Of a stretch of 64,000 nucleotides of DNA, positions 16,476-22,951 are shown one piece after another. The notes under the pieces were generated by a model. It had not been told where the DNA came from. It ran no database searches and saw only the letters and a program-made list of their open reading frames with translations. The stretch lies in assembly GCA_040384485.1 (NCBI GenBank), contig JAZKJH010000003.1:7556-71555 (forward strand), given 5' to 3'. Both the position numbers and the translations under genes were made by a program. The first letter of the stretch is position 1, and every line of letters starts with the position of its first letter. The stretch comes from Patescibacteria group bacterium (lineage in GTDB: Bacteria > Patescibacteriota > Minisyncoccia > Phycocordibacterales > DATDWN01).

Positions 16476-17078
16476 TTAGTCTGGCAATTTTGAGTAATCT
16501 ATATCACAATAAGGATCTAAAGAACTGTAACTTCCTATTTGGTCATAGAAACTTTTCTGAAACTCCTGCCTATGTTCAGTATTGGAATGCAATTTTTCAA
16601 CAAATTCAACCAGCTCATCACTTTCCTTGAAAAATCTTTCTAAATTACTTCTAGATAATATTTCGGTAGTACACAAAGAAGCTCTGTCGCCCTCCTGAGA
16701 TACAGCAACCACAATATCAGTATTAACAAACGGCTGGGTAAATTCCATCTGCAGAGCCAATGCATACTGCAAAGATACAGCTCTTTTTTTAGCGGAGTTA
16801 GGATACTTTTCAAAAATAGCTAGTTCTACGTCATCCCTTATTCCGTTTGCATTTGCATCCACTCCTACCACAGTTACGTCAGCCCTATCTCCCGGAGGCG
16901 GAGGAAGGTCCTTACCCATCACATCATCGAGTGTAAGTTTAGTTGCGTGAATCTTGGCAACCACAGCATCAGTCTTTTTTTGGTTATTCAATAAAAAACC
17001 TCTATACACCACAACCCCCAAAAACAAAACTAAAATAGTTACTCCCGCCCACTTCGCTATCTTTTTAAAAAGATTCAT
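16476..17078 (-). CDS. Hypothetical membrane-anchored protein (200 aa)
   Basis: N-terminal TM. Start overlaps the downstream gene by a few nt, so likely co-transcribed with 13472..16474. Confidence 0.45.
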   Translation of the reverse strand: MNLFKKIAKWAGVTILVLFLGVVVYRGFLLNNQKKTDAVVAKIHATKLTLDDVMGKDLPPPPGDRADVTVVGVDANANGIRDDVELAIFEKYPNSAKKRAVSLQYALALQMEFTQPFVNTDIVVAVSQEGDRASLCTTEILSRSNLERFFKESDELVEFVEKLHSNTEHRQEFQKSFYDQIGSYSSLDPYCDIDYSKLPD

Positions 17079-17135
17079 ATAGAAATATTATTACCCAAAT
17101 TATACCAACCCTATCCCACCATTCACATCAAAATT

Positions 17136-17846
17136 GTGGATAACTATCCAAGGGCATCCCTTGGATATAGGTATACTATTATTATGGAGAGAAGATTTGA
17201 ATTCTCAATTGGAGAATTTTATCACGTCTACAATAGGGGCAACAACAAATCCACAATATTCTTTGATGATAAGGACCGGGCCCGTTTCCAAAAGTTACTT
17301 TATATATGTAACGGCTCCAAACCTGTTGTTTTCAAAAATGTCCAAGGGGTGCCCTTGGATAAAATAGATGTGGGAGAAAAACTGGTTGATATTGGCTTAT
17401 ATTGCCTTATGCCGAACCACTTTCATCTTTTATTGCGAGAAATAAAAGAAGGCGGTATTAGTCGTTTCATGGAAAAAATGTCCACCGCATATTCAATGTA
17501 TTTTAATAAAAAATACAATAGAACTGGTAAATTGTTTGAGGGAAGGTTCCAAGCATCTCACATACAGGATGATCGACATCTTAAATATCTGTTCTGCTAT
17601 ATACACCTCAATCCAGTTAAAATAATCAATCTTAATTGGAGAACTGCAGAAATAAAAAGCGCAAACGAAACACAAAAATATTTAGACCAGTATACTTACT
17701 CAAGTTTTATGGATTACAAATCAGTTTCTCGAAAAGAAGATATTATTCTTAATAAATCATCCTTTCCGGAGTACTTTTCCGAACCGAGAGAATTTGAGAA
17801 GTTTATAGATGAGTGGCTCACCATCCAAGGGATGCCCTTGGATTAA
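17136..17846 (+). CDS. HUH Y1 transposase, IS200-like / REP-associated tyrosine transposase
   Basis: FYHVYNRGNNK...CLMPNHFHLLL (HuH motif) typical of Y1 transposases (PF01797-like). The more likely start is MERRFEF at ~17184. Confidence 0.8.
   Translation: MDNYPRASLGYRYTIIMERRFEFSIGEFYHVYNRGNNKSTIFFDDKDRARFQKLLYICNGSKPVVFKNVQGVPLDKIDVGEKLVDIGLYCLMPNHFHLLLREIKEGGISRFMEKMSTAYSMYFNKKYNRTGKLFEGRFQASHIQDDRHLKYLFCYIHLNPVKIINLNWRTAEIKSANETQKYLDQYTYSSFMDYKSVSRKEDIILNKSSFPEYFSEPREFEKFIDEWLTIQGMPLD
17148..17164. repeat. REP-like palindrome CCAAGGGCATCCCTTGG (copy 1, 5' of transposase)
   Basis: Perfect 7-3-7 palindrome. Five copies lie within 1.6 kb. Confidence 0.8.
17342..17358. repeat. REP-like palindrome copy 2 (CCAAGGGGTGCCCTTGG), inside transposase CDS
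   Basis: Encodes ..QGVPLDK.. within the ORF. Confidence 0.7.
17825..17841. repeat. REP-like palindrome copy 3 (CCAAGGGATGCCCTTGG), at transposase C-terminus
   Basis: Encodes ..IQGMPLD* at the end of the ORF. Confidence 0.7.
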
Positions 17847-17877
17847 ATAACAGCATATAATTAGGTCACAAATCTAT

Positions 17878-17894
17878 CCAAGGGCATCCCTTGG
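17878..17894. repeat. REP-like palindrome copy 4 (3' of transposase)
   Basis: CCAAGGGCATCCCTTGG, identical to copy 1. Confidence 0.8.
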
Positions 17895-17940
17895 ACTGTT
17901 AGGTGAGACCTATGTAGAGTTATCCACAGGTTAAGGTAAC

Positions 17941-17969
17941 AAAAAACCCAGGAGGACCTGGGTTTTTTT
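17941..17969. terminator. Bidirectional rho-independent terminator
   Basis: aaaaaa-CCCAGGAGGACCTGGG-ttttttt between convergent genes. Confidence 0.7.
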
Positions 17970-18681: not shown

Positions 18682-18736
18682 AGTGAGAAAAGTATATCAT
18701 ACTCCCAGTATCTTTTAAACCTCTCTCATCCAAAAT

Positions 18737-18753
18737 CCAAGGGCATCCCTTGG
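18737..18753. repeat. REP-like palindrome copy 5 (solo, ~0.8 kb from the element)
   Basis: CCAAGGGCATCCCTTGG in the intergenic region upstream of the TPR gene. Confidence 0.75.
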
Positions 18754-18858
18754 ATAGTGGGAACGGAGGTTTAGATAAAACAAAAACCACCCTTGCGGGT
18801 GGTTTTTGTTGATTAACTTAATCTGTCTTGAAATATATTGCTATATCTCAAAGATAGG

Positions 18859-22272: not shown

Positions 22273-22460
22273 ATATATGTTTTTAATAAGAAATGATCTC
22301 TCTAAAGTTATTAATAAAATGTGTTTAGAGAAAACCATTTGTGAAAACTATTAACTAATTACCTTAATAATTTCTGATACGGCCACTTCAATATTCTTCG
22401 AACTTTCATTCGAAGAATATTCCGTGACCGCATCACATGCAATTTTTTTGTGCTCATATT

Positions 22461-22764
22461 TTGTTCACATCTCCACATGGTGGCAGAGCCGAACAACTCG
22501 ACACGAGTACAAAAAAATAGATGGCGTGTTGAGTGGGAATTTCTAGAGTGTCTAAAATGTAGGAATAAAGCGGTAAGTCGGAAAACTAACATTAGCGGCT
22601 TTTTATGCCGCTGTGTATAAATCCATATTTTGTTGTCAAAGAACTGTCTGTTCTGAAAGATATAAAAGCTATACAGAACTTATGCACATAGCCCTCGCGG
22701 GCTATGACACATATATAAGTATATAGTCTCTATATCAGACTTTCAAATAACAGCGTGTGGATAA
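22461..22764. promoter_or_regulatory. Cluster of DnaA-box matches (TTATNCACA) in a 620-bp hairpin-rich intergenic region
   Basis: Perfect matches: TGTGTATAA at 22612-22620 (rc TTATACACA), TTATGCACA at 22680-22688, TGTGGATAA at 22756-22764 (rc TTATCCACA). One-mismatch TTGTTCACA at 22461-22469. Several perfect hairpins lie in the same region (22392-22420, 22689-22708, 22771-22797). Confidence 0.4.
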
Positions 22765-22951
22765 CTGGTTTTTTGAGGTTTTAGGACCTCAAAAAGTTGT
22801 ACTACCCAACCTACCAATATTAGACAAAAATGAGCAAAAAGTCAATCCAACAGACGAGAAATATGCTCGCTCTGACAGGGTGATTTTTGCCAAGAATTTT
22901 TGCCTCAATACCATAGACGGGAATAATGTAGAAATATTACTCAAAATAGTT

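Follow-up and report, generated by a model that had tools for sequence, protein, structure and literature searches.

A RAYT-like gene with REP-like palindromes around and within it in a genome of the Patescibacteria

The RAYT-like gene and its product

The subject of this analysis is a gene for a RAYT (REP-associated tyrosine transposase)-like protein and the short REP (repetitive extragenic palindromic)-like sequences that lie around and within it, in a 64,000-nucleotide (nt) stretch of contig JAZKJH010000003.1 (positions 7,556 to 71,555; assembly GCA_040384485.1) from an ultra-small bacterium of the Patescibacteria group. This whole stretch is referred to as the window, and positions are given in its numbering. 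The gene codes for a RAYT-like Y1 HUH tyrosine nuclease/transposase of 220 amino acids (aa) and occupies positions 17184..17846 of the plus strand; together with its palindromes it probably forms a locus of the kind known as a REPtron. The preliminary description of this DNA had taken as the gene the mechanical open reading frame 17136-17846, which opens at a GTG within the left member of a pair of inverted 11-mers. Since the homologs all begin with MERKF, and a -10-like TATACT lies 6 nt before the ATG at 17184, we moved the start to this codon. The palindrome at 17147 consequently lies upstream of the gene and outside of its coding sequence.

The protein passes the Pfam Y1_Tnp profile (34.4 bits, cut-off 23) and contains the HUH motif NHFH (residues 78-81), YIHLNP with the catalytic tyrosine (139-144), GRFQAS, which includes the FQ pair, and a YTYSSF tail with YSS at residues 172-174. 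Residues H79, H81, Y139, N143 and P144 are invariant in 58 homologs, as are S173 and S174. An AlphaFold2 (AF2) model built from these homologs has a pLDDT (predicted local distance difference test score) of 90.3, and its best Foldseek match in the PDB is 4ER8_A, the TnpA-REP protein of E. coli with a REP hairpin bound (E=2e-6, probability 1.00, 17% identity). The TnpA structures of IS608 and ISDra2 rank below 4ER8, mixed with tRNA-His guanylyltransferases. A sequence search of the PDB with the family profile gave marginal matches alone, with E about 0.8 to the ISDra2 transposase. The profile match, the NHFH and YIHLNP motifs and the fold match to TnpA-REP bear out the earlier assignment to the Y1 HUH proteins of RAYT type.

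Beyond the nuclease domain there is a C-terminal helical extension of 75 aa. The idea that it might be a diverged DnaA domain IV was dropped, there being no Pfam match and no such match in the PDB; neither a Bac_DnaA_C nor a helix-turn-helix (HTH) domain was found in the protein by Pfam at E<=0.1. The PADLOC defence models matched neither the protein nor its two neighbours. The search for homologs yielded 6540 proteins. Identity is 57-67% for the top 120, and all source names given among these belong to the Patescibacteria or candidate phyla radiation (CPR), including Zambryskibacteria, Yonathbacteria, Terrybacteria and Paceibacterota.

Palindromic repeats in the window

A search with the pattern CCAAGGGNNNCCCTTGG (the palindrome is also written as TCCAAGGGNNNCCCTTGGA) recovered all five sites that had been claimed, namely those near the ends at 17148 and 17878, the solo copy at 18737 and the coding copies at 17342 and 17825, against 0.00 expected from 100 shuffles. 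The five share a 19-nt core, TCCAAGGG-NNN-CCCTTGGA, and allowing up to 3 mismatches added no further site in the 64 kb. In order of position the loops are CAT, GTG, ATG, CAT and CAT, and all five copies fall within 1.6 kb.

The 5' copy (17145..17167; TATCCAAGGG.cat.CCCTTGGATA) has a perfect 10-bp stem and stands 5 nt upstream of the -10-like hexamer, in the spacer/-35 region of the RAYT gene's promoter. The internal copy (17341..17359; TCCAAGGG.gtg.CCCTTGGA) lies in frame and encodes residues 53-59, VQGVPLD, while the 3' copy (17823..17843; ATCCAAGGG.atg.CCCTTGGAT) supplies the last seven codons, IQGMPLD, and is followed by the stop. Two palindromes are thus read as protein, as had been described: 17341-17359 gives QGVPLD, and 17824-17842 gives the C-terminal QGMPLD and the stop. 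The 3' copy pairs with the 5' copy as its exact inverted partner, with 100% complementarity along 21 nt, and in 14 of the 58 close homologs the C-terminal tail reads the 3' REP in the same frame. On the minus strand the internal REP is followed by a T-run (17341-17368) and was scored as terminator-like; it could stop antisense transcription into the gene.

A second 3' copy with loop CAT (17877..17895) is intergenic and inverted relative to that at 17823. Together the two make up a REPIN-like doublet (two inverted REP units giving a larger hairpin), with 27-nt arms that are 89% complementary and 32 nt apart. The solo copy (18735..18755; ATCCAAGGG.cat.CCCTTGGAT) lies between a gene for a 1159-aa protein and one for a tetratricopeptide repeat (TPR) protein, and a REP occupies the same intergenic position in two of the other loci studied (designated by L numbers), L164 and L172.

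Two more hairpins lie downstream of the gene. The degenerate TAGGT.gag.ACCTA (17900..17912), between the second 3' REP and the right 11-mer, corresponds in type to the intact CATAGGT hairpins seen in L002, L007 and L012, the 3' hairpin of L002 being TACATAGGT.tta.ACCTATGTA. It is possibly the relic of an earlier REP type, and such a remnant hints at turnover of REP types at this locus. The other, AAAAAACCCAGG.agga.CCTGGGTTTTTT (17941..17968), has a 12-bp stem with A and T runs and resembles a bidirectional intrinsic terminator between the RAYT gene and the convergent TPR gene.

Repeats at homologous loci

Eighty homologous metagenome loci, of which 75 are non-redundant, were scanned for perfect hairpins. 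A hairpin family common to at least two sites at the gene was found in 52 of the 75 loci, and on both sides of the gene in 46. Where hairpins are present, the distance from the 5' copy to the ATG is 30-70 nt, and the 3' copy stands at the stop or just beyond. Stems are constant within a locus and differ between loci (CCAAGGG, CCCATAGGC, GTGAAGGT, GCTAGG, GGGAGGA, CCTGCAAGG and others). Read toward the gene, the 5' and 3' copies often have identical loops and so are true inverted repeats.

An in-frame copy of the locus's own hairpin was present in 20 of the 75 loci. Most of these lie at +155 to +163, which is the site used in the window, before the HUH motif; in the AF2 model the internal REP peptide falls in the loop between the helix of residues 29-41 and the strand of residues 68-75. 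A second in-frame site, at +257 to +281, right after the HUH strand, is used in L070, L072, L074, L077 and L080. Both of these positions are in surface loops. Six loci with differing flanking stems (L003, L007, L011, L037, L055 and L059) each carry their own stem at the first site, and the peptides found there are unrelated between lineages (VQGVPLD, DIPIGEAYGN, NKLREGLTFTELMDI and NYQGVALIKI), the DNA being in each case the palindrome of that locus. Every copy in L003 has GGC/GCC, and as a result alanine (A) replaces proline (P) in its protein. Between the sister loci L007 (GGC.gag.GCC) and L012 (GG.ggagt/actcc.CC) the five bases at the centre are different in all copies, also in the internal one.

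Might QG-x-PLD instead be a functional protein motif, from whose codons the palindrome simply follows, with the flanking copies being gene fragments or products of chance? Forty-eight of the 58 close homologs do keep [QR]G.[PSA]L at the site, and in some lineages the peptide outlives the decayed palindrome, e.g. IQGVSLD in L010. However, the unrelated peptides of distant homologs are each encoded by that locus's own flanking hairpin, homologs that lack the internal hairpin have a shorter loop at the site, and the probability of CAAGGG..CCCTTG given QGxPL and the codon usage of the window is 0.0012. The clade with the hairpin at +257 to +281 has it elsewhere in the protein altogether. A protein motif is thus refuted for the family as a whole, and we hold this reading to be very unlikely. 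The own-palindrome peptides, the co-varying stems and the codon probability lead us to view the internal copy as a DNA-level REP which evolves in concert with the others.

The preliminary description raised two possibilities, that the protein binds to such hairpins on its gene or the mRNA and that REP insertions have become domesticated as coding sequence; of these, the locus-specific stems and the in-frame copies favour domestication. The accompanying remark that REP copies inside the transposase gene are unusual was overstated, since in-frame REP insertions in tnpA-REP, in peripheral loops, typify subclass 2.4 (Quentin et al. 2018, PMC6006769), and REPs have been reported inside other genes, with a bias to those of replication and repair (Di Nocera et al. 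2013, PMC3733652). In a rough neighbor-joining tree the loci with an internal hairpin are scattered among those without, which is compatible with one ancient insertion followed by losses or with repeated insertions. REPIN-like doublets were also seen near other RAYT genes (L012:5669-5730, L014:6513-6560, L009:831-870 and L042:690-730).

Dispersal of the palindrome in related genomes

The palindrome was sought by its 16 specified bases in one genome per species. At least 118 tiles of 8 kb matched, and the statements that follow concern the matches listed, among which the window's own genome does not appear. About two thirds of the tiles listed come from metagenome-assembled genomes (MAGs) of Patescibacteria, judging by the record titles. 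Several MAGs have the palindrome on several of their contigs, and within any one genome the loops are of one type. In the Saccharibacteria MAG CAZMFR01 the exact core was found at least 22 times, always with a CTA/TAG loop and in part as tandem arrays; UBA910 has at least five, all TTA/TAA; and CAZQYV01 (at least four copies), JBAYUN01 and JBBTQM01 have CAT/ATG loops like the window. Most of the dispersed copies have no RAYT gene in their 8-kb tile. Arrays of three hairpin units with a period of 25-28 nt were noted in CAZMFR01 at L166:5064-5132 and L178:1431-1505.

Among the copies in other Patescibacteria MAGs are some that lie in frame in genes confirmed by Pfam. These comprise the genes for NAD-dependent DNA ligase (ligA; L153:3921, where AGTTATCCACA adjoins the hairpin), RecG (L139:2463, a doublet), an AddA/UvrD-type helicase-nuclease with three copies (L143:5097/6167/6193), KsgA (L095:7730) and RsmI (L093:1805/1834 and L131:2486; a doublet). 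Coding copies outside of RAYT genes use all three frames (IQGxPLD, SKGxPW and PRxxLG) and are often doublets. This pattern of dispersal is the behaviour of a propagating REP family. The suggestion that the palindrome belongs to a dispersed family therefore holds for related MAGs, with their copies on several contigs and the 22 or more in CAZMFR01.

Promoter and expression signals

Upstream of the RAYT gene, the -10-like TATACT at 17172..17177 (plus strand) ends 6 nt before the ATG and is a candidate promoter element deduced from the sequence. The same spacing recurs in the family: of 64 homologous loci, 27 have a -10-like hexamer whose end is exactly 6 nt from the ATG and 38 have one at 6-8 nt, and a Shine-Dalgarno-like motif was found in two of the 64 only. 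From this spacing and the near-absence of Shine-Dalgarno motifs, the RAYT-like family is evidently expressed from leaderless mRNAs, and TATACT is the probable -10 element of the gene in the window, which would imply a leaderless mRNA here as well. A generic promoter scan made no call of TATACT, and it is the family-wide spacing that points to the leaderless promoter.

At 44 homologous loci a median of 24 nt separates the end of the 5' hairpin from the ATG, which puts the hairpin in the spacer/-35 region. With a leaderless start the 5' copy is not part of the gene's own mRNA. Its position in the core promoter suggests autoregulation, which might act via binding of the protein or extrusion of the hairpin. 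Mismatches in the stems, taken on the sense strand, comprise two G:T, six A:C and nine others; the cases are few and there is no G:T bias, so that they lend no support to a structure selected at the level of mRNA.

These positions raise the question of whether the palindromes could act as operators in double-stranded form, bound by a dimeric regulator that may be the RAYT-like protein itself, or as stem-loops in RNA that influence transcription, translation or the stability of the gene's mRNA, in which case the coding copies would be regulatory and not mobile. The placement of the 5' copy in the core promoter and of the 3' copies at the end of the transcript, at conserved positions, would suit such a role, as would the antisense T-run of the internal copy and the concentration of the window's copies at the gene. 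Yet the palindrome occurs far from RAYT genes on many MAG contigs, in tandem arrays and in frame in housekeeping genes, the leaderless start leaves the 5' copy outside of the mRNA, the stem mismatches are without G:T bias, and the gene persists in several lineages in which the internal copy has decayed. As the full explanation we consider it unlikely; a regulatory role can nevertheless coexist with a REPtron-like locus as a secondary role.

Conserved gene order and inversion

The proteins encoded next to the RAYT gene in the window were compared by tblastn with all fetched loci. The order FtsK, a 267-aa DeoR-type HTH protein (p267), a 1159-aa peptidoglycan-binding protein, the TPR protein, RAYT, a 200-aa protein (p200) and a 1000-aa LTD/beta-helix protein was found at about 28 loci, with 43-67% identity between their RAYT proteins and that of the window. 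The RAYT-like gene is single-copy in the 64-kb window, no tnpB-like neighbour was found at the locus, and a scan of IMG/VR revealed no relatives of the protein. The conserved neighbours, the single copy and the lack of viral relatives argue for a resident, vertically inherited gene. Housekeeping-like, vertically inherited RAYTs and their REPtrons have been described (Bertels et al. 2017, PMC5581495).

RAYT gene and neighbours share one direction at nearly all other loci. In the window the RAYT gene runs in the opposite direction, with the order and orientation of the neighbours kept, as seen on comparison with L055, L006, L082, L172, L037, L016 and L012; the RAYT cassette is thus inverted here. 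An independent 13-kb Logan contig which encodes an identical protein has the same arrangement and orientation as the window. The inversion presumably came about by exchange between flanking inverted repeats, either the 21-nt REP pair or the 11-mers. L065 is a possible second inverted case, and in L004 the TPR and RAYT genes are swapped.

One locus has these neighbours and no RAYT gene. In L164 (Paceibacterota MAG JBAZZC010000003.1, positions 1400-1730) the 1159-aa gene, a REP and the TPR gene are followed by AGTTATCCACA and an unrelated inverted repeat with a 22-bp stem (ACCCAGGCACTAACTTGATGAG ... CTCATCAAGTTAGTGCCTGGGT) just before the start of the next gene. This may be a deleted RAYT site with an insertion that resembles a miniature inverted-repeat transposable element (MITE).

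Inverted 11-mers

The two inverted 11-mers stand at 17135..17145 (TGTGGATAACT, which reads AGTTATCCACA on the minus strand) and 17918..17928 (AGTTATCCACA, plus strand). The consensus DnaA box is TTATCCACA, and the 11-mers, of the form (A)GTTATCCACA(G), match it exactly, as had been pointed out; the extended box consensus at the loci is AAGTTATCCACAGG. A third exact copy (22756-22766) lies about 420 nt upstream of the 1159-aa gene, with the same spacing from box to TATATA as in the left box. Under a uniform model about 0.03 exact copies would be expected in the 128 kb of both strands. In a shuffle test allowing one mismatch, three were observed and 1.28 expected, with 13 of 100 shuffles reaching three or more, which is not significant.

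An exact box occurs within 150 nt upstream of 8 of 70 homologs, against a control rate of 0.0085 per 150 nt elsewhere in the same loci, and for 8 of 65 one falls in a 210-nt interval that runs from 60 nt before the stop to 150 nt after it. The box is accordingly a recurrent, not a universal, feature of these loci. It adjoins the 3' or 5' hairpin in L003, L006, L007, L012, L019, L022, L070 and L072. Over all fetched loci, a -10-like hexamer is situated 30-32 nt downstream of 16 of the 70 distinct boxes, the background being about one per position. Loci with a box at this distance from a -10-like hexamer, the site being centred near -47, include L003, L006, L007, L012, L031, L041, L049, L074, L087, L145 and L164.

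On the minus strand of the window, 30 nt separate the left box from a TATAAT (17104-17099) that precedes the gene for the 200-aa protein (16476-17078). Homologs of p200 have a box before them in L006, L018 and L055, either perfect or with a single mismatch. On these grounds 17135..17145 is probably a promoter-proximal site of the neighbouring gene. The right 11-mer is followed by the terminator-like hairpin at 17941-17968 and by no promoter, and is therefore an orphan in this orientation. We regard the 11-mers as DnaA-box-like, probably promoter-proximal sites, one of them belonging to the neighbouring gene, and not as transposon ends. Of the earlier statement that the element is bounded by inverted ends, the exact inversion of the two 11-mers stands and their role as ends does not, the left one fitting the promoter of the 200-aa gene.

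The element had been introduced as an IS200/IS605-like mobile unit, and the whole of 17135-17928 might indeed be an active insertion sequence (IS), of IS200/IS605 type or bounded by terminal inverted repeats (TIRs) like those of the TIR-associated Y1 transposases (TIRYTs), with the 11-mers and subterminal hairpins as its recognition ends. The Y1 HUH protein and the exact inverted 11-mers at both ends, each with a hairpin just inside, are what one would expect of such an element. Box and hairpin together also flank homologs with unrelated stems (L072 and L070), box and REP occur within ligA (L153), a near-box and REP form a solo copy in L086, and the neighbours in L164 have a box without a RAYT gene. 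Against this, the gene keeps its position between the same neighbours at the roughly 28 divergent loci, and this synteny largely refutes mobility. Nor do the single copy in the window, the lack of TnpB or the absence of relatives on viral contigs speak for an insertion sequence. The tyrosine motif is the Y---NP of class 2 and not the Y---Q of IS200 (PMC6006769). About 20-25% of homologous loci only carry the box, and the left one is explained by the neighbour's promoter. We think it very unlikely that the locus is an insertion sequence.

The intergenic region of about 600 nt upstream of the 1159-aa gene (22340-22950) is unusually long and holds several perfect hairpins, at 22390-22421 (13-bp stem), 22687-22706 and, directly after the third box, 22770-22795 (TTTTTGAGGT.tttagg.ACCTCAAAAA). 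An Rfam scan of the whole window found three tRNAs only, and nothing at the RAYT locus or in 22340-22950.

Interpretation

We propose, with a probability of roughly three in four, that this is a REPtron-like locus of the Patescibacteria (CPR), i.e. a single-copy, vertically inherited, domesticated tyrosine transposase gene of RAYT type with copies of its cognate hairpin repeat. The protein would recognize the hairpin as single-stranded DNA and cut and rejoin beside it, as does E. coli TnpA-REP. Such cutting and rejoining could both spread the copies and keep them alike, so that all copies of a locus, the coding ones too, would be overwritten in step (concerted evolution). The internal and C-terminal copies would be tolerated because they have no stop codon in the frame used and are sited in a loop and in a variable tail. 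Binding or extrusion at the 5' copy, which overlaps the -35/spacer region of the putative leaderless promoter, probably autoregulates the gene. The cassette between the 11-mers or the inverted REPs would have been flipped in the window's genome with respect to its relatives.

Several observations weigh against this proposal. The NCBIfam equivalog model for RAYTs, REP_Tyr_transpos (NF047646), scored 43.2 bits, below its cut-off of 80, and aligned with residues 67-146 alone. No shared perfect hairpin was found at 23 of the 75 homologous loci. The repeat is barely dispersed in the window: four copies stand at the gene, the solo copy lies at a distance of one gene, and the remaining 62 kb contain none. 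The canonical 5' GT[AG]G foot is lacking: GTAG and GTGG are not enriched in the 14 nt outside of 104 flanking hairpins, and where GTGG occurs near hairpins, in a minority of loci, it always belongs to the DnaA-box-like 11-mer. In lineages L009, L010 and L013 the internal copy has decayed while the gene persists, so the coding copy is dispensable. The concerted evolution of the copies could stem from ordinary gene conversion or repeated re-insertion and not from the enzyme. For autoregulation and for the mechanism of the inversion, the evidence consists in the position of the repeats.

A further-reaching version of the proposal holds that the enzyme itself rewrites all hairpin copies, including the coding ones in its own gene and in ligA, recG, addA, ksgA and rsmI of relatives, with the set tracking the specificity of the enzyme, and that the locus is in addition an invertible cassette, bounded by DnaA boxes and coupled to the replication initiator. 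We hold this to be rather unlikely. If it were true, the locus would lend itself to the study, in a minimal genome, of how an enzyme drives the concerted evolution of short coding segments, and the coupled cassette would be the first functional link of Y1 proteins of the subclass 2.1 type to real DnaA boxes.

The genomes of Patescibacteria are tiny and gene-dense. To our knowledge RAYT/REP systems have been studied almost wholly in Proteobacteria, Cyanobacteria and Bacteroidetes, and few promoters have been characterized in Patescibacteria that we know of. The locus leads to a very large RAYT-like family in this group, which pairs the motif signature of subclass 2.1, a subclass reported as REP-free, with REPs. 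From lineage to lineage, the REPs that lie in the promoter and coding sequence of the gene itself change together with those flanking it, and relatives tolerate the repeat in frame in genes for DNA repair and rRNA modification. Since the main questions about RAYTs are those of host benefit and of the co-evolution of repeat and enzyme, the conserved synteny provides a framework in which the turnover of repeats can be tracked over long times. Perfect DnaA boxes about 30 nt upstream of -10 elements may also bear on gene regulation in Patescibacteria.

Comparison with known systems

We found no paper that links REPs or RAYTs, DnaA boxes or leaderless genes with Patescibacteria in the literature searched, though one may exist. 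The nearest structural relative is TnpA-REP of E. coli (subclass 2.2 of Quentin, Group 2 of Bertels; 4ER8), with which the window's protein shares the Y1 HUH fold and the HUH and Y---NP motifs. Its REPtron is likewise a single-copy gene with its own flanking hairpins, commonly inverted, with repeats elsewhere in the genome and vertical inheritance. The window's protein differs in being only 17% identical to 4ER8, in scoring below the NCBIfam cut-off for RAYTs and in its 75-aa C-terminal helical extension. The Patescibacteria hairpins have short perfect stems with loops of 3-5 nt and, unlike the E. coli REPs, no GT[AG]G foot. The copy number appears low, at about one solo copy per tens of kb, and the REP-containing promoter is predicted to be leaderless.

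Subclass 2.4 (Bertels Group 4), known from Cyanobacteria, Bacteroidetes and others, resembles the family in having in-frame REPs in tnpA-REP, and the site at +257 to +281 matches its location between the HUH motif and the tyrosine. However, the 2.4 signature is NH[IFV]H, WQ and YIxNNP, whereas here we have FQ and YIHLNP; the internal site of the window precedes the HUH motif and falls in the loop that joins the first helix to the second strand; and the single or double GT[AG]G foot is missing.

By signature only, the protein matches subclass 2.1 (Bertels Group 1) and the TIRYTs: NH[YF]H, FQ, Y[IV]HLNP and an SS tail, as in the second 2.1 variant, with a length of 220 aa compared with a median of 238. 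TIRtrons also have inverted repeats at the ends of the locus, and there is a link to DnaA in that some 2.1 proteins carry Bac_DnaA_C (DnaA domain IV), although their TIRs are unlike DnaA boxes (PMC6006769). Subclass 2.1 is reported to be without REP-like sequences, whereas the Patescibacteria family has hairpins at most loci. The published TIR is GGGGWSAS as opposed to (A)GTTATCCACA(G) here, and of the C-terminal domains known from TIRYT members, HTH or Bac_DnaA_C, Pfam finds neither in the window's protein.

Rickettsia palindromic elements (RPEs) and the REPs found within genes (Di Nocera 2013) are similar in being short palindromes in frame in functional genes, with a bias that recalls ligA, recG, addA and uvrD. 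The units here are much shorter than RPE-1, at 19-25 nt, and have an identifiable cognate Y1 enzyme, the gene of which itself carries the insertion. With the IS200/IS605 elements (IS608, ISDra2) the locus shares the Y1 HUH domain and hairpins near the ends of the gene. These elements belong to subclass 1.1, with Y---Q, a core-only protein of about 150 aa and often a tnpB gene; the protein of the window, in contrast, has YIHLNP and 220 aa, and its gene is single-copy, at a fixed position and without TnpB. The palindromes here are perfect and often inverted, whereas the left-end and right-end hairpins of the IS elements are on one strand.

Against this background several traits appear to be new, namely the phylum, the combination of a 2.1-type signature with REPs, the hairpins without a GT[AG]G foot and the internal site before the HUH motif. 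The same appears to apply to a REP inside a putative leaderless promoter, to the DnaA-box-like flanks and to deep synteny together with inversion of the gene.

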